Assembly: GCA_963820525.1 (NCBI GenBank)
Contig: CAWGAA010000003.1
Coordinates: 1 to 64,000 of the forward strand
Direction of reading: 5' to 3'
Source: an uncultured Spirochaetota bacterium
Lineage (GTDB): Bacteria > Spirochaetota > Spirochaetia > SZUA-6 > Fen-1364
DNA length: 64,000 nucleotides
Shown: positions 1-9,465 of the stretch, one piece after another
How positions within the stretch are numbered: position 1 is the stretch's first letter
Layout: each line of letters opens with the position of its first letter
Translations under genes and position numbers: made by a program
The notes under the pieces: model-generated
What the model was told of the DNA's origin: nothing
What the model saw: the letters and a program-made list of their open reading frames with translations, nothing else
Database searches by the model: none

Positions 1-600
1 ACAGCGCAAGGGGATCGTCATCGCCGCCTATGAGGCTGGAAGCATGGGATTCGATCTCGCCAGGGTTCTCTCCGACATGACGATTCAGTGCGTCGTCGCC
101 GCACCGGGGAGGATCGCTCGTCAACCTGCGGAACGGGTCAAGACCGATCGGCGAGATGCGCTGATGATCGCTAAACTTCTCAGGAACTCGCAGCTTGAGG
201 CGGTCCACGTTCCTACCCCTGAAGATGAAGCGGTGAGGGACTACCTCAGAGCTCGGGCCGATCTCAAGCTCGACTACACGCGTACCAAACAGCGGCTGTC
301 GAAGTTCCTCCTGCGTCACGGCTACCTCTACCAAGGGAGCCCGTGGACGCAACGCCACATGGAGTGGATGAAGGGTATCGAGTTTCCCCAGCCCATGTTG
401 GCGGATACCTTCGAGCGCTACCTGGGGACCCTCCTCACTCAGAAGGAACAGCTCAAAGCGATGGATGCCCAAATCGAATCCTTGGCAACGGGTCCGCGCT
501 ACGCCGCGGCGGTGGTGAGACTGCGGTGTCTGAAAGGCATCGACTATCTGACGGCGCTCAGCCTTGTCTGTGAGGTGGGAGACTTCCGCCGATTCGAAAG
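1..600 (+). pseudogene. IS110 recombinase/transposase, 5' part (DEDD RuvC-like domain and coiled coil), interrupted
   Basis: Motifs AYEAG, RVKTDRRDA and LKGIDYLTALSLVCEVGDFRRF. The reading frame runs into the IS256 terminus after 600. Confidence 0.9.
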
Positions 601-2218
601 GGGATATTGTCAATTCTTGTGGATCAGGATTGCGAGCGTATCCCACGATGATTTCGAAACTGCTGTTGACCCCTATGCCCTCCTTTCCTCGAGACTGGGC
701 GCCGTAGAGGGGGTGTCCAGATACCACCTCGCCTTCGAAAACGCGTTGTAGGCCCACCACGACGCACGTTTTTTCGGTCGATGGCTCGTCGAACACCCCC
801 AAGACGATTTGCAGCCTCCTGTTCGCCGCCGATCTTCCCAGCCCCGGGTGGCTGACGGAGGCCGTTACGCGGCCTGCTCCTTGAGCTCTCCGTCGATGAA
901 GCGTTTGCCCTCCAGTACCATCGGGATCCACTTCGCCCCGTCCAGGCACCGCCAGCTCTTCTCCGCCTCCTGGCAGAGCTTGAACACCATCGACAAGGTG
1001 GCCGCCCGCGATCCGCACCCCTTGGTCTTCGCCGTGCGCAACCTCACCGTCGCGAACGTCGACTCGATCGGGTTGGTCGTTCGAATGTGAATCCAGTGCG
1101 CCGCGGGAAACTCGTAGAACGTGAACAGCGCCTGCTCGTCCTTCTCCAGGCATTCCACCGCCTTGGGGTACTTGTCCTTGAAGCTGGCGATGAACAGCCC
1201 ATACGCTTTCAGCGCCGCCTCCTTCGTCTCGGCCTGGTACATCTCGTGCAGCATCGCCTTGGCCTTCGACTGCACCCCCTTGGGCAGCTTGTCCAGAACG
1301 TTGGCCGTCTTGTGCACCCAGCAGCGTTGATGCTTCATCCCCGGGAATACCTCCTCCGCCGCTGCCCAGAATCCCAGCGCCCCGTCACCAATGGCCAGTT
1401 TTCCCGCCATTTTCAGCCCCCGGGCCTTCAGGTCCAGCAGCATCTCCCGCCAGCTGGCCTTGCTCTCGCGATATCCGTCGCTGACGGCCACCAACTCCTT
1501 CTTGCCCTCCCGTGTGGCCCCGATGAGGACCAGCAGACAACTGCGCTCGTCATCCAGACGCACGTTGACGTAGATCCCGTCCGCCCACAGGTACACGTAC
1601 TCCTTGTCCTCCAGGCTGCGGCTGCTCCACTGCGTGTGCTCCTCCAGCCACCCTTCCTTCAGCCGCGTGATCGTCGAGGCCGACAGCCCCTTGGCCCCTT
1701 CGCCCAGGATCGCCGCCAGGGCCTCGCTGAAGTCCCCCGTGGAGATGCCCTTCAGGTACAGCACCGGGATCAACCCCTCCAGGCTCGGCATCTTGCGCAT
1801 GAAGCGCGGCAGGATCGCGCTGGAGAACCGCTCGCCCCCTTCGATGTCGCGAAGCCCGCGGTCGTCCACGCGCGGCTGACGGATCGGCAGCGGCCCGATG
1901 CCGCTGAGGATGGTCCGCTGGGGCATGTAGCCGTTGCGCACCGCCTTCCGGTGGCCTTTCTCGTCTCGGAAGTGCGTGAACCTCTGCAGGAACTGGTTGA
2001 CTTCTTCCTCCAGGGCCGCCTGCAGGGCGCTGCGCGCGCCCGCGCGGACCAGCTGCTCCAGCAGATCCTGGGAATTGCCCTCTTCGATCTTCAGCCCGGA
2101 TGTGATACCTTCGTCCATGAGCGTGTCCTCCAATCGGTGATTCCTTGGTGGTGCTTGGTTTCACCGAAGGATACGCTCTTTTTATTCCCTGTCCATCCAC
2201 AAGATTCGGTTATATCCC
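601..2218 (-). mobile_element. IS256-family insertion sequence, complete
   Basis: Imperfect 24-bp terminal IRs: GGGATATTGTCAATTCTTGTGGAT at 601 versus the reverse complement of 2195-2218, GGGATATAACCGAATCTTGTGGAT (19/24 identical). 9-bp direct repeat ATTCGAAAG at 592-600 and 2219-2227. Confidence 0.95.
865..2133 (-). CDS. IS256 (mutator-type) DDE transposase
   Basis: Motifs RNGY, YLWADGIY, IGDGALGF, HQRCWVHK and IRTTNPIES. Confidence 0.95.
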   Translation of the reverse strand: MEDTLMDEGITSGLKIEEGNSQDLLEQLVRAGARSALQAALEEEVNQFLQRFTHFRDEKGHRKAVRNGYMPQRTILSGIGPLPIRQPRVDDRGLRDIEGGERFSSAILPRFMRKMPSLEGLIPVLYLKGISTGDFSEALAAILGEGAKGLSASTITRLKEGWLEEHTQWSSRSLEDKEYVYLWADGIYVNVRLDDERSCLLVLIGATREGKKELVAVSDGYRESKASWREMLLDLKARGLKMAGKLAIGDGALGFWAAAEEVFPGMKHQRCWVHKTANVLDKLPKGVQSKAKAMLHEMYQAETKEAALKAYGLFIASFKDKYPKAVECLEKDEQALFTFYEFPAAHWIHIRTTNPIESTFATVRLRTAKTKGCGSRAATLSMVFKLCQEAEKSWRCLDGAKWIPMVLEGKRFIDGELKEQAA

Positions 2219-2580
2219 ATTCGAAAGAGCCGAGCAGTTCATGGGATTCCTTGGGATCGTCCCCTCTGAACGGACCAGTGGCCCCAAGCGCCGCCAGGGA
2301 GGGATCACCAAGGCGGGCAACGTTCACCTGCGAGAAGCTCTTGGTGGAAGCCGCGTGGCATTATCGCTACCACGCCTGCGCTTCCAAGAGACTTATCGAG
2401 AGGCGTAGCGGACAGAAGGCCGAGGTGGTCGCGTATGCCGAACGGGCAAGGGAGAGGCTGCAGAAGAAGTTCGCCCGTCTTGTGCATGGAAAGGCCAAGA
2501 AGAGCCAGGTGGCGGTGACCGCGGTGGCTCGCGAGCTTGCCGGCTTCGTGTGGGGTCTCATGGTGGGGAAGGTTGCCTAG
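2219..2580 (+). pseudogene. IS110 recombinase, 3' part (Tnp domain), with a 1-bp frameshift near 2333
   Basis: FLGIVPSERTSG...GITKAGNVHLR in one frame, then KLLVEAAWHY...AVARELAGFVW in another frame. Confidence 0.9.
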
Positions 2581-2604
2581 ACATCCCGGGTGCGTGAAGG
2601 AGAG

Positions 2605-2810
2605 CCTTCGGGTACAGAGATGGAGAGAGAACGCCGCACGGTAAAGGAGAATCCTCGGCCTAACTGTAAGGCACCCTGTAATAGGGCGATCCTTGTGTGC
2701 AGAATGAGGCAGCTCCCGATGAATCCAATGTCATGCGTTAACCAATACGCGAATATTAGTCTGATCAATCGTCGCGGTTCCGGCTCTCTCTCCTTCCCTG
2801 TACCCGGAGG
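2605..2810 (+). ncRNA. Putative IS110 bridge/seek RNA
   Basis: Closing stem 2605-2630/2785-2810 (24 of 26 positions pair, counting G-U) encloses two internal-loop hairpins. The loop sequences match the target flank (CCTAACT) and the element right end (ATATTAG). Confidence 0.7.
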
Positions 2811-2870
2811 ATAGAATATGGTAGAAAGAAAAAGCGATTCGAGCAGGGTACGTCGGTCACATCATATTAG

Positions 2871-3170
2871 TTAGGATTCGTGCACTGGATCCTTGCCACG
2901 CCCCTGGTGTAGTTCCCGCAGTCCAGGAAACGCCGGACTACCCTGCGGATCCTCTCCAGGCGGATCCGTCCCAGGCGGCGGGCGTAGTCCGCTTCGTAGC
3001 GCGCGCAAAATTCGGCGAAGTGCCTCTGAAATAAACTTTGGAGCGTACTGGCGCCCCGCTGCCGATAGGTGCAGGGTGACGCCGTCTCCAGAGCAAAGGC
3101 CAGCTGATCTGCCACACAGGGAGCCAACGGCCCCAGAAACGCCGCGCTTGCCTTGTGGGCGTCATCACCT
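2871..3170 (-). pseudogene. IS91-like transposase, N-terminal zinc-binding fragment, cut by the IS110
   Basis: YRQRGASTLQSLF...FLDCGNYTRGVARIQCTNPN aligns by eye with 47903-48637 (YRQRGTSSLQSLF...FLECGDYTKGIARIQCTNPRC). Confidence 0.85.
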
Positions 3171-3252
3171 CACCTTAGCTGTTACATTATCTGTAATATT
3201 ATTTTTTTCGCACTCCCTACAAGCCATTGCAAGTCCCTGTAAGTTCAAAGAC

Positions 3253-3450
3253 ATGTTCGACAAGGATTTCTACCTCAACCTGGTGAACCTGGAGTATCGA
3301 AACGAGCTGGAAAAGCCGAAGTTCGACCCCACCCGGCCGGCCAGGTACTTCGCGGAGAACAGCGCTTCCCTGGCTGAAGAGATATCCGCGACCACACTCG
3401 CCAGCTTCGAAAAGATGTTCAAGACCTTCAACGCTTTCTGCGCGCCGTAG
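3253..3450 (+). CDS. Short hypothetical ORF, probably a C-terminal gene remnant
   Basis: Coding-like composition (MFDKDFYLNLVN...RPARYFAEN...FEKMFK) but no clear RBS. Confidence 0.35.
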   Translation: MFDKDFYLNLVNLEYRNELEKPKFDPTRPARYFAENSASLAEEISATTLASFEKMFKTFNAFCAP

Positions 3451-3517
3451 TCGTTCGGATCGCCGCAGGCACCGGCGCGGCAATCTTGCCGCGCGCCTCT
3501 TCCCGCGGGCGTGCCCG

Positions 3518-6196
3518 CTACGCCTCCGGCGCTGAAACCGAGGGCTGCTCCGCGTCCGGCATCAGGCCATCCTTCTCCACCCGCGCGGTTTCTTTCTTGT
3601 GCGCGCGCTCACGCGGCCGATCAGCCGGCCCTGCCGCGGTATAGTCCGCCTCGAAGAGAATGCCCAGGGCGTCCAGCACCGAGTCGGCGAACATGAAGGT
3701 CAGGCTCGAGAAAACCTCGTTGGGAATCTCCTCCAGGTCCTTCTCGTTCTGCCGGGGAAGCAGGACGTGGGTCATCTTGTAGCGGTGCGCGGCAAGGACC
3801 TTCTCCTTCACGCCGCCGATGGGCAGCAGCCTTCCCGTGAGCGTGATCTCCCCCGTCATGGCGAAACCGCTCCGGCAGGGAACTTTCTTGACCGCGGAGA
3901 GGAGGGCCGTCGTGAGGGTGATGCCCGCAGAAGGACCGTCCTTCGGGATGGCCCCCTCGGGAACGTGGATGTGGATGTCACGCTCCTTGTTGAAATCTGC
4001 CGGGATGCCCAGCCGCTCATAGTTGGCGCGGAGGAACGAGAGGGCCGCCTGCGCGCTCTCCTTCATCACGTCTCCCAGGCTTCCCGTAAGCATCAGGTCG
4101 CCCTTTCCCGAAAGGATGGCAACCTCAACGGGGAGGAGCTGGCCGCCCAGCTCGGTCCACGCAAGACCGTACGCAAGGCCGGGCTTGTCCTCCCGCGAGA
4201 AGAGGGGATCTATGAACTTCTCCTTGCCCAGGAACTTGTCGACGTTGCGGTTGGTGATGACGAAACGGAACGGCGCCGGCGCCTCTCGTGAAGGCGTCGA
4301 GCGGGAAGCGTCGGCGGAGGGCTGCCCGGCAAAAGCGGGCTCTCCCACGGGGGCGGTTTCGCCGGCGGCGTCTGCCGCTGGCTCGGCGGCATCTGCCGCG
4401 GGCTCGGTGGTGTCTACCGAGGACTCGGCGGCCGGCGCGCCCGAAGGCGAGTCGCCGGTGCTTTTCGCGCCCTCCGTTGCCGCGATAGGCTCGGAGGCGG
4501 GCGGCATCAGGCCGCGCTTCACCGCCTCGCGGGCGATCTTTCGGAGCACGTTAGCGATCTCCCTCTCGAGGTTCCTCACCCCCGCTTCCAGGGTGTAGTT
4601 TCTGATCATCTTCAGAAGCGCTGAACGATGGAAGCGGATATCGGCCCAGTCGAGGCCGTTCTCGGCCATCTGCTTGGGAACCAGGAATTTCTCGGCGATC
4701 TTCTCCTTCTCGATCTCGGTATAGCTCGAGATCTCGATCACCTCCATCCTGTCCCGAAGCGGATAGGGTATGTTGTGCACCGAGTTGGCGGTGGTGATGA
4801 ACATGACGTCGGAGAGGTCGTAGGGGACCTCGAGATAGTGATCGAGGAACGTGGAGTTCTGCTCGGGGTCCAGCACCTCCAGGAGCGCCGCCGTGGGATC
4901 TCCCCGCCAGTCGGAGCTCATCTTGTCCACCTCGTCAAGGAGAAACACGGGATTCACCGTCCCCGCCTTCCGCATGGACTGGATGATCTTTCCCGGAAGC
5001 GCGCCGACGTAGGTCTTCCTGTGTCCGCGGATCTCGGCCTCGTCACGCACCCCGCCCAGAGATACCCGCACGAACTGCCTTCCCAGGGAGCGCGCCACGG
5101 ACCTTCCCAGGGAGGTCTTTCCCGTCCCCGGCGGCCCAATGAAGCAGAGGATGGGCCCCTTCACCTTGCTCTTGAGCTGCCGCACGGCGATGAAATCGAG
5201 AATCCGCTCCTTGACCTTTTTCAGGTCGTAGTGGTCCTCGTCGAGGATTGTGCGGGCACGCTCGATGTCCCGGTTGTCGGCGCTGGTCTCCTTCCAGGGA
5301 AGGTCCGCGATCCACTCGAGGTAGGTGCGAAGCACGGCGGATTCCGGAGACAGGGCCTGCATCCTGCTCAAGCGCTTGAGCTCCTTCTGGCACTTCTCCG
5401 ACACTTCGGTGGGAAGGCCCTTTGCCTTCAGCTTCTCCTCCAGCTCCCGTGCGCCCGTGGGATCGTCACCCTCGGATCCCAGCTCCCGCTGGATCTCCTT
5501 GAGCTGTTCGTTGAGGAAATAGTCCTTCTGGGACTTCTCCATCTTCCTGCGGACCTTGTTCGTGATCTCCTGCTCCAGGGCCATGACCTCGATCTCCGAG
5601 GCCACCACGGCGACGCACCGCTCCAGCCTTTCCACCGAATCCTCGATGGAGAGAAGCTCGAGCTTCCTCTCGGATTTCAGCGGGAGGTTTCCCGCGATCA
5701 GGTCCACCAGCATGTCCGGCGCGTCCGCGCTCTCTATGGCCGCGGCGATCTCGGGCGGCACCTTCTTGTAGAGGGCATTGTAGCGGGCGAAATGGTCCAC
5801 GGCGCTGCGCATGAGGGCGGCCATCCGCGGGCCGGTCTCATGCGATTCCTTGATGGGCCGCACCACGACGCGGAAGGCGTCCTTGGTCTCGGTGTGACGG
5901 GCGATGACGGCCCTCTCGATGCCCTCCACGAGGAGCCGGATCTTGCCGTCGGGCAGCTTCAGCGACTGTAGTATCCGGGCAACCGTGCCCACCGCATGCA
6001 CGTCGCGCTCGCCCGGCTCGTCAACCGTCGTCTTTTTCTGCGTCACGAGGAAGATGAGCCGGCCCTGGTTCATTGCCTCGGTGACGCTGGCAAGCGAGCG
6101 CTTGCGGCCCACGAAGAACGGCGACACCATGCGGGGAAAAACGACGATGTCCCGCAGGGGGACCATGTAGTATTCGTGCTTCTTGAGGATCTTCAT
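3518..6196 (-). CDS. lon: ATP-dependent protease La (LonA) with a low-complexity insertion
   Basis: LON N-domain, Walker A GPPGTGKT, LLDEVDK, catalytic PKDGPSAG and GGVKEK. Confidence 0.97.
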   Translation of the reverse strand: MKILKKHEYYMVPLRDIVVFPRMVSPFFVGRKRSLASVTEAMNQGRLIFLVTQKKTTVDEPGERDVHAVGTVARILQSLKLPDGKIRLLVEGIERAVIARHTETKDAFRVVVRPIKESHETGPRMAALMRSAVDHFARYNALYKKVPPEIAAAIESADAPDMLVDLIAGNLPLKSERKLELLSIEDSVERLERCVAVVASEIEVMALEQEITNKVRRKMEKSQKDYFLNEQLKEIQRELGSEGDDPTGARELEEKLKAKGLPTEVSEKCQKELKRLSRMQALSPESAVLRTYLEWIADLPWKETSADNRDIERARTILDEDHYDLKKVKERILDFIAVRQLKSKVKGPILCFIGPPGTGKTSLGRSVARSLGRQFVRVSLGGVRDEAEIRGHRKTYVGALPGKIIQSMRKAGTVNPVFLLDEVDKMSSDWRGDPTAALLEVLDPEQNSTFLDHYLEVPYDLSDVMFITTANSVHNIPYPLRDRMEVIEISSYTEIEKEKIAEKFLVPKQMAENGLDWADIRFHRSALLKMIRNYTLEAGVRNLEREIANVLRKIAREAVKRGLMPPASEPIAATEGAKSTGDSPSGAPAAESSVDTTEPAADAAEPAADAAGETAPVGEPAFAGQPSADASRSTPSREAPAPFRFVITNRNVDKFLGKEKFIDPLFSREDKPGLAYGLAWTELGGQLLPVEVAILSGKGDLMLTGSLGDVMKESAQAALSFLRANYERLGIPADFNKERDIHIHVPEGAIPKDGPSAGITLTTALLSAVKKVPCRSGFAMTGEITLTGRLLPIGGVKEKVLAAHRYKMTHVLLPRQNEKDLEEIPNEVFSSLTFMFADSVLDALGILFEADYTAAGPADRPRERAHKKETARVEKDGLMPDAEQPSVSAPEA

Positions 6197-6229
6197 GCCT
6201 GCTTGTGCTCGACCGTGCCGGCCCCGGCG

Positions 6230-7460
<1,231 letters not shown>

Positions 7461-7483
<23 letters not shown>

Positions 7484-8081
7484 TCTTGCTCCGCCTCAGG
7501 ATCTTGTCGATGAGGCCGTACTCGAGGGCCTCGTCGGAAGACATATAATAGTCCCTCTCCAGATCTTTCTCAACCGTCTCGGGCTTGCGCCCCGTATGCT
7601 CGCCGAAGTAGGAGACGATGAGCTTCTTGATCCGGATGAGCTCGCGCGCCTGGATCGAAATGTCGACGGCCTGGCCGGACACGCCGCCCCAGGGCTGGTG
7701 GATGAGGATGCGCGAAGAGGGGAGCGCCACGCGCTTGCCGTGGGTTCCGCAGGCCAGGAGAAGGGCCCCCATCGAGGCGGCCTGCCCGAGGCAGATGGTC
7801 TGGACGTTGGGCTTGATGTACTGGATCGTGTCGTAGATGGCAAGCCCTGCCGTCACGGTGCCGCCGGGCGAGTTGATGTAGATGTGGATGTCCTTCTCCG
7901 GGTCCTGGGATTCGAGGAAGAGGAGCTGCGCCACGACGAGGTCCGCGTTCACGTCGTAGATCTCTCCGTCGACGAACACGATTCTGTCCTTCAGCAGGCG
8001 CGAGTAGATGTCGTACGAGCGCTCGCCGCGCCCGGTCTGTTCGATGACTATGGGAACGAGATTCGTGTCCATCTCAGCCAT
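7461..8081 (-). CDS. clpP: ClpP protease proteolytic subunit
   Basis: [25 protein letters not shown] and IHQPWGG. The ATG at 8081 has a GAGGAG RBS. Confidence 0.97.
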
Positions 8082-8115
8082 GAGATCTCTCCTCATCCTT
8101 TCTGCCCTAGTGTAC

Positions 8116-9465
8116 TCAATTTCCCGCAAGGATGTCCAATACCTTCTTGCTCCCGGCCTTTCGGATGGAGGTCTTCGAAAGCACGTAATCGTAGAGCTTG
8201 TCGACCTTGAGGTTGCTCTTCATGTAGCCGATGAGGTTCTGCTTGGAGAGGCTCTCCCGCAGCTCCCCCGCCTCCACCTGCCGCGACTCGGCCATGCGGG
8301 CGATCTCCGCGTCCATCTCCGCCTCGTCGATCTCGATGCTCTCCCGCTTTCCGATCTCCGAGATGACCAGTTGGAGCCTTGCCCTCTTCTCCGCGGCGGG
8401 CATCCAGTCCTTCCTGATGTCCTCGACGCTCTTTCCCTGACGCTCCAGGAGCTGGAGCAGCGTTTTCTCTTCGATGCGAAGCCGGCTCATGTAGTCCTCC
8501 CACATGAGGCCGAGCTGGTATTCCACCAGGGACTTGGGCAGGGGAATGGTCGAGCTCTCCACCACGCGGTCCAGAACCGTGTTGAGGGCTCGCGAGCGAA
8601 GCGCCCCCTTCACGGCATCTTCCAGCTTCCTGGTGATGTCCTTTTTCAGATCTTCGAGCGTCTGGAACTTGTCGCTGATGTCCTGGGCAAGCTCGTCGTT
8701 GATTTCGGGAAGCTTCTTCTCCTTGATGGTGTTGAGCGTGACCTTCAGGGAGACCGACTTTCCGGCGAGCTCCTTGTTCTCGAAGTCCTCGGGGTAGCTC
8801 TTGGGGAAGGTCTTCATCTCCGCCGTTTTCATTCCGACGATCTCCTCGTCGATCTTGTAGAAGTTGTATCCTGTGCCCACCTCGAACACGAATGCCTCGC
8901 GCTTGGTGCCGGGCTTTTCCGCGCCCGCCTCGTCGAGCTCCATGTAGTCGATATTGGCGATATCGCCCATCTCGACGGCCCCACCTTGTTTATCGGTGAA
9001 CATCGCGTTCTGGCCCTGAATTTCCTTGAGCTCCCTGCCGATGTCCTCCTCGCCGATCTGCCACTCCGGCTCCTCCACCTCGATTCCCGTGTACGGGCCG
9101 AGCTCCACCTTGGGGTAGGTGTCGTAGACAAGCTCGAAGGCGAAGTCCTTGCCGATCTCCAGGGCGCCTTCGGCTTTCACGTCGGGGCTGTCGTAGGGCA
9201 GCGGTTTCTGCTCCAGGGAGGGGAGGATCTCGGTGATGGTCTTCTCGAGGACCTGGGCGCGCGTCTCGTCCACGAGGGTCGGGCCGAGCTTCCTGATGAG
9301 CACATCGGGCGGGACCTTTCCCTTTCGAAATCCGGGAATGCGCACCGTGGCGCAGTATTCCTTGACGAGCGTGTCGTATTCCTTTTTGATCTCGTCTCCC
9401 GGGACGCTGATCTTCACCTTGACCTGGGAGTTCTCCAGAAGCTCGATTTCCTTGGTCGCGTTCAC
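8116..9465 (-). CDS. tig: Trigger factor
   Basis: [10 protein letters not shown] ribosome-binding signature, FKBP-like middle domain, upstream of clpP. Confidence 0.96.

Follow-up and report, generated by a model that had tools for sequence, protein, structure and literature searches.

The locus at the start of contig C3 poses the question of whether the non-coding DNA at the 3' end of a damaged IS110-family element encodes an RNA that guided the element to the site in which it lies, and whether the same RNA also recognizes the element's own ends. The window (the whole stretch of DNA analysed) is the first 64 kb of this contig, in an assembly of 5.05 Mb and four contigs. The contig begins within the recombinase gene, with the first catalytic Asp and the left end of the element absent from the assembly, and the remainder of the gene is divided by another mobile element:

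2..600, forward strand: IS110-family DEDD recombinase, N-terminal part (Pfam DEDD_Tnp_IS110, PF01548, E 2.3e-13; NCBIfam transpos_IS110, E 2.4e-37)
601..2218, reverse strand: IS256-family element inside the recombinase gene (Pfam Transposase_mut, E 1.8e-63; NCBIfam transpos_IS256)
2219..2580, forward strand: C-terminal part of the recombinase, with the Ser-Gly motif kept and the stop at 2578-2580 (two-frame ORF translations read against the homologue alignment)

The N-terminal part is 89% identical to a full-length homologue (P0001), which itself scores above the cut-off for NCBIfam NF033542, and the catalytic Glu, Asp-x-x-Asp and Ser-Gly expected of the DEDD RuvC-like and Transposase_20 parts are all readable in the recombinase translations. 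The IS256 insertion is flanked by a 9-bp duplication (592-600 and 2219-2227), and two further IS256 copies, 93.7% identical to the inserted one, lie on contig C1. The gene carries a second lesion, a frameshift near 2335; the independent public run X1 has a contig that lacks one base at 2335 and otherwise agrees throughout 2316-2473, which leaves a change unique to this genome and a mistake in the assembly as the two explanations. The recombinase gene is therefore not intact, which bears on activity and not on IS110-family ancestry. Its stop is followed by a non-coding region of 288 nt, and the upstream non-coding region is ~90 nt in close relatives. A search of the whole genome assembly found no second copy of the element, which is present in single copy only. 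A distant IS1111-type paralogue (L193, C1:1118137-1118304; 37% identity) has its own bridge RNA with other guides, which by eye fit its own flanks.

An earlier note on this DNA had proposed that the 3' region encodes a bispecific guide RNA with one loop for the insertion site and one for the element's end. Every coordinate and match given there was confirmed by direct reading of the sequence, including the reverse complementarity of CCTAACT (2659-2665) to AGTTAGG (2869-2875) and the identity of ATATTAG at 2753-2759 to 2864-2870. The RNA and its two domains were delimited as follows:

2605..2810, forward strand: predicted long RNA, both loops enclosed by an outer stem of 2605-2630 with 2785-2810 (sequence, duplex energy)
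2646..2716, forward strand: target-binding domain, with helices 2646-49/2713-16, 2653-56/2706-09 and 2668-71/2691-94 and an apical hairpin (consensus structure, pair covariation)
2717..2774, forward strand: donor-binding domain, with helices 2717-22/2769-74 and 2734-38/2747-51 and an 11x17 loop (consensus structure, pair covariation)

The outer stem, put at 26 bp before, is present at 2605-2630/2785-2810 and contains 24 pairs over the 26 positions, with one G-U and two mismatches. Its duplex energy here is -51.3 kcal/mol; across 140 distinct loci the median was -46.0 kcal/mol for an RNA's own arms vs -20.6 for swapped and -22.4 for shuffled arms, and the stem is conserved as structure. Within the target-binding domain, CCTC (2653-2656)/GAGG (2706-2709) and AAGG (2668-2671)/CCTT (2691-2694) surround an 11x11 loop with strands GGCCTAACTGT (2657-2667) and GTGTGCAGAAT (2695-2705). 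Beneath it lies an additional helix absent from the earlier description, GGAG (2646-2649)/CTCC (2713-2716), two of whose pairs show 6 compensatory changes each. Folded as a single sequence, the RNA reached moderate stability only (z -2.29; 5 of 200 shuffles equally good) and closed part of the target loop. Evidence for an open loop comes from a consensus of 44 aligned RNA cores, in which two-sided changes were present in 13 of 28 pairs (0 of 500 shuffles as high) and 95.9% of cells were paired vs 33-46% in slid controls, scores favoured by the derivation of the consensus structure from the same 44 sequences.

Scanning of 2200-3600 against Rfam gave two matches, both far under gathering scores, and hence no Rfam family. 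Neither a promoter (including a sigma-70-like consensus) nor a terminator was found by scanning 2400-2950, and the right end here is without the TTGAC box that is present in 65 of 87 relatives; the missing consensus promoter and the missing box count against easy expression of the RNA in this copy. The lack of an Rfam family, together with the shortness of each individual match and the modest single-sequence z, would favour a reading in which the matches are fortuitous and the region serves only as a terminator-like or protective hairpin; this is weighed below against the insertion site and the relatives.

The insertion site was reconstructed from the right junction and from uninterrupted copies of the target gene elsewhere in the assembly:

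2869..2870, forward strand: right-junction core AG, CT on the opposite strand (similarity to the empty copies begins exactly at 2869)
2871..3127, reverse strand: interrupted IS91-family transposase, N-terminal 86 codons, cut within a Cys-x-x-Pro-x-Cys motif (empty copies, Pfam)

Three uninterrupted IS91-like copies on contig C2 are 97.9-99.7% identical to the window from base 2869 on. An intact copy contains Pfam Y2_Tnp and Zn_Tnp_IS91 domains, which bears out the suggestion that the target lies in another mobile element. The empty sites read TGC-AG-TTAGG in two copies and TAC-AG-TTAGG in one. It had been predicted from the target loop that the left flank would end in GC-AG and that the interrupted codons specified Asn-Cys; the left flank is as predicted in 2 of the 3 near-identical copies, the third reading AC-AG, and the codons are Asn-Cys as expected (CTNPNCK). 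One C2 copy matches the window out to about 3685 and so closely represents the site as it was prior to insertion. The locus thus comprises three nested mobile-element layers, an IS256 element in the IS110 recombinase gene and the IS110 element in an IS91-like gene. Four of 21 public runs were examined, all as assembled contigs. Near-identical pieces of the element with the same guides were present in X1 and X4, and the empty site in X1 and X2. One X4 contig spans the junction with only 13 element bases (standard 31) and was not counted as a second insertion. A contig from an RNA run holds the 3' region of a relative with 21 differences, a contig that cannot show transcription.

The target loop's two strands were assigned to the two strands of this site:

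2657..2667, forward strand: 5' target guide, in which 2659-2666 is complementary to top strand C-AG-TTAGG, i.e. -1, core and +1 to +5 (empty sites, covariation)
2695..2705, forward strand: 3' target guide, in which TGCAG (2698-2702) is the top-strand sequence from -3 to the core and pairs with the bottom strand (covariation)

Together the two strands match 10 bp of the site, and a candidate handshake base (2703) follows the core in the 3' target guide. Each of the 8 variable positions of the guides (-3 to -1 and +1 to +5) matches in this element, as against 0.25-0.40 per position in shuffled pairs. Relatives were collected using the N-terminal recombinase piece as query; 19 homologues were aligned, 80 metagenome and 80 genome loci were retrieved, and further loci from related genomes were added. 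A covariance model of the kind the earlier note had called for, constructed from homologous 3' regions, was applied to 174 of the 192 sources (duplicates, distant fragments and loci with short 3' flanks, 18 in all, were omitted) and gave 168 matches (in 97 of 100 sources in one batch, and 71 matches in 74 sources in the other), mostly at loci around related transposase genes. Element ends were called from the inverted repeat, with the guides not used. A total of 111 of the 168 matches were kept; 57, this element among them, were set aside because an end was missing, a flank was short or the register was unusual, and removal of repeats left 87 distinct guide pairs.

In these 87 elements the loops vary with the targets. 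The 5' guide matched the right flank at +1 to +5 with frequencies of 0.93, 0.86, 0.85, 0.70 and 0.62 (shuffled about 0.26), and at +6 and +7 no match above shuffled was found; the 3' guide matched the left flank at -1 to -4 with frequencies of 0.95, 0.89, 0.56 and 0.36 (shuffled 0.40, 0.31, 0.26 and 0.24), with no match above shuffled at -5 and -6. For positions -3 to -1 and +1 to +5, 0 of 1000-2000 shuffles were as high, and a register of the 3' guide shifted by one base gave background matches only. All 8 positions from -3 to +5 matched in 20 of the 87 elements and 5 or fewer in 21, figures that are conservative because a one-base register shift in some subclades is miscounted by the fixed register. 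Kinship was controlled with 27 disjoint close pairs, in which differing guide positions matched the element's own site in 132 of 170 cases and the partner's site in 15. The fortuitous-match reading, to which we give almost no credence, is refuted by this guide-flank covariation and the close-pair control, and the left-flank prediction borne out at the empty sites also speaks against it. Genome G005 contains seven copies with both ends, sharing one guide and one target. The left flanks of these copies (L182-L188) share about 20 bases beyond the guide-matched part, so their target is a repeat family.

The second loop was compared in the same way with the ends of the element:

2723..2733, forward strand: 5' donor guide, with TGTC (2729-2732) complementary to the G-ACA expected at the circle junction (left end taken from relatives)
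2752..2760, forward strand: 3' donor guide, in which ATATTAG (2753-2759) equals the element end plus core (covariation)
2855..2868, forward strand: right subterminal inverted repeat arm, 14 bp, absent from the earlier note (perfect repeat of the left arm in close relatives)

The left end assigned to this copy is that of L022-L024, L028 and L029; L022, an intact relative, has both ends and is 90% identical to P0001. The left arm, seen in relatives only, is a perfect 14 bp in L022-L026, L028 and L029, and 80 of the 87 elements match 10-11 of 11 positions of the 7/3 register, a count conditioned by an end finder that required a repeat. In every one of the 87 elements, the last base of the element is the same as the base preceding the core of the 3' donor guide (shuffled 0.73); it is C in 74, T in 6, G in 5 and A in 2, the variants being in scattered loci. 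The 5' donor strand, not assigned previously, matches six junction positions at 0.68-0.93 vs 0.42-0.85 shuffled (a level reached by none of 1000 shuffles at any of the six) and has a conserved mismatch at the first core base. Because the second loop tracks the right end in all 87 elements and its other strand matches the left end, it is identified as the donor loop. Base 2760, after the core in the 3' donor guide, is a second candidate handshake base. Over the 87 elements the base following the core matched the other partner at 0.95 vs 0.78 shuffled (3' target guide against left-end +1) and at 0.59 vs 0.28 shuffled, a pattern that resembles the handshake guides of IS621 and gains little from the close pairs (5 pairs; own 5, cross 3). 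L027, with nearly the same guides, has no AG core at its right end, and the unrelated sequence after its right subterminal repeat may be the end of another insertion sequence.

A rather improbable alternative is that only the first domain (about 2646-2716) acts as a guide, in the manner of a short seekRNA, with the second domain processed off a precursor and the ends read by the protein at the subterminal repeats. According to the available text of Siddiquee et al. 2024 (PMC11187229), transposition of ISEc11 was supported by an 82-nt RNA whose only matches were to the target, and the long subterminal repeats here are available for a protein to read. Against this stand the invariable agreement of the second loop with the element end, including its T, G and A variants, and the tracking of the left end at six positions by the loop's 5' strand. 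Such tracking is hard to explain without pairing, though it is backed by a small number of independent changes (2 close pairs differing at each tested position, own end 4 of 4).

A bispecific RNA encoded at the 3' end, as originally proposed, is thus supported by the empty sites and by covariation of its guides with both flanks and ends, and we consider it very likely that this is the bridge/seek RNA gene of an IS1533-related, IS1111-type member of the IS110 family, working as follows. The element would exit as a circle in which the right and left ends meet at the AG core, as the behaviour of the family suggests, and the RNA, probably transcribed from the circle junction, would bind the DEDD recombinase from its place in the 3' non-coding end. 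The first loop would open the target, its 5' strand pairing with the top strand (-1 to +5) and its 3' strand with the bottom strand (-3 to core), and the second loop would pair likewise with the circle junction, after which the recombinase would connect donor and target at the core by strand exchange. The guide would so specify a site of ~10 bp, here within the codons for the zinc finger in a multicopy gene for an IS91-like transposase. The IS256 element would have arrived after this insertion and disabled the recombinase. A copy-out route has been proposed in two preprints, one of them 10.1101/2025.10.25.684509, in their available text. With its recombinase broken and three matching sites left empty, the element looks inactive, and it is probably immobile on its own at present.

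Assignment to the IS1111 type would follow from the 3' region, the 7/3 repeats, the guide order and 45-46% identity to a protein labelled IS1533. The IS1111-family seekRNA elements ISEc11, ISPa11, ISKpn4 and ISPst6, as presented in the part of Siddiquee et al. available to us (PMC11187229), resemble this one in that non-coding DNA follows the transposase gene on its 3' side, the inverted repeats are subterminal (extensions of 7 nt at the left and 3 nt at the right), the top-strand match lies 5' of the bottom-strand match, and relatives are naturally reprogrammed. For an element of IS1111 type, a 3' RNA and this guide order follow a published rule, so the RNA found here is not surprising. The transposase here, at 364 aa, differs from the 330-350 aa given there for IS1111, and a donor-pairing loop is not described for seekRNA in that part of the paper, whereas the second loop here covaries with both ends. 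IS1533 is called the most abundant member in the same source. The protein labelled IS1533 by UniRef (P0108) is 46% identical to the N-terminal part here and 45% identical to P0001 over 361 aa, a likeness known from the protein alone; its start agrees by eye with the published IS1533 sequence. IS1533 belongs to a different host, and the element here is broken.

Resemblance extends to the IS621 bridge RNA, which in the accessible text of PMC11208160 and PMC11208158 likewise has a first loop for the target and a second for the donor, with the core in each strand, a CT core (that of the minus strand here) and handshake bases (PMC11208158) placed, like the candidates here, directly after the core. 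Relative to what is given there for IS621, the RNA here lies in the right end, the orientation of target and donor is reversed with respect to the gene, the guides are 5 (right) and 3-4 (left) rather than 9 and 4 nt long, and the subterminal repeats are long. ISCARN28, with a predicted IS1111-group bridge RNA (Fig. 6d of PMC11208160, as far as available), has by eye the protein motifs common to this clade. Durrant et al. 2024 (PMC11208160, available text) predicted a bridge RNA for 93.0% of IS1111 elements, located for the most part at the right end, and 32,190 loci with such predicted RNAs are reported in the accessible part of a preprint survey (bioRxiv 10.64898/2026.10.21.760802). A literature search, with most subscription journals outside it, found no study of this element, of an IS1533 RNA, or of an IS1111 element targeting IS91.

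The element is accordingly a new, disabled member of the IS1111-group bridge/seek RNAs, a kind known since 2024. It leaves the known mechanism unchanged, and the surveys, as far as their text is available, already predict such RNAs for most IS1111 elements. What it adds is a set of guides, target and donor with empty sites in the same genome, in a system already used for programmable genome engineering, and its clade, in which guides vary naturally (87 variants) and close relatives are intact, provides a compact scaffold for studying the second loop of IS1111-type RNAs.

The guide may be tuned to the zinc-finger codons of IS91-like elements. That it was selected to target them, making the element a parasite of a mobile element rather than the product of a single chance landing, is possible and, in our estimate, doubtful. 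Across the 5-Mb genome the perfect 10-mer is present just twice, each time in an IS91-like copy, and the site lies in the conserved metal-binding motif of a multicopy gene; yet there is a single insertion, three matching copies are still empty, and the five closest complete relatives have other guides and other sites. When 193 loci were searched with the IS91-like protein, no IS91-like target was found at the junctions of relatives, and the 2 other loci with fragments had them about 120 and 700 bases from the ends. To judge from these loci, targeting of IS91 does not characterize this clade, and one insertion cannot show preference. Targeting of mobile elements as such is already known for the IS1111 group, IS4321 and IS5075 targeting Tn21 repeats (Partridge and Hall 2003, by its title as cited in PMC11208160), and here it rests on one insertion.

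In 105 of the 129 end calls, both ends carried AG as the core dinucleotide. Differing junctions were seen in 17 distinct elements of correct register, belonging to a few clades; their left dinucleotide was always AG, and in 13 the right one equalled that of the 5' target guide. The right dinucleotide was AA, GG or AC in these 13 (L073, L066, L090, L110, L142, L147, L155, L159, L160, L166, L170, L174 and L180). Both junctions and all three guides of L165 read AA. The asymmetry appears to fit the convention by which the left AG is assigned to the element with no duplication (PMC11187229, available text) and the top-strand insertion reported in the accessible text of a preprint (10.1101/2025.10.25.684509). 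We put forward only tentatively, as something we would not yet expect to hold, that the IS1533-like clade may have a true donor-binding loop with handshake-type bases and junctions that record one-strand integration. If so, natural sequences would indicate that RNAs of the IS1111 type are complete bridges inserting a single strand, a point that would bear on the bridge-versus-seek question.

The surroundings of the insertion gave some further observations. The IS91-like copy at C2:64787-65699 has the same neighbouring small ORF and lon 3' end as 2869-3685 of the window, at 94-98% identity, and this shared flank suggests either rolling-circle capture of flanking DNA or strain mixing in the assembly. 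The small ORF at 3253-3447 is without about 81 bases that the C2 copy has. IS91-like copies and fragments are dense over C2:5700-67000, with at least 12 tblastn pieces in about 60 kb. Beyond the interrupted gene, the reverse strand of 3518-8129 holds what we take, from reading the translations, to be lon, clpX and clpP, the Lon having a long Ala/Pro-rich insert around 4260-4500.
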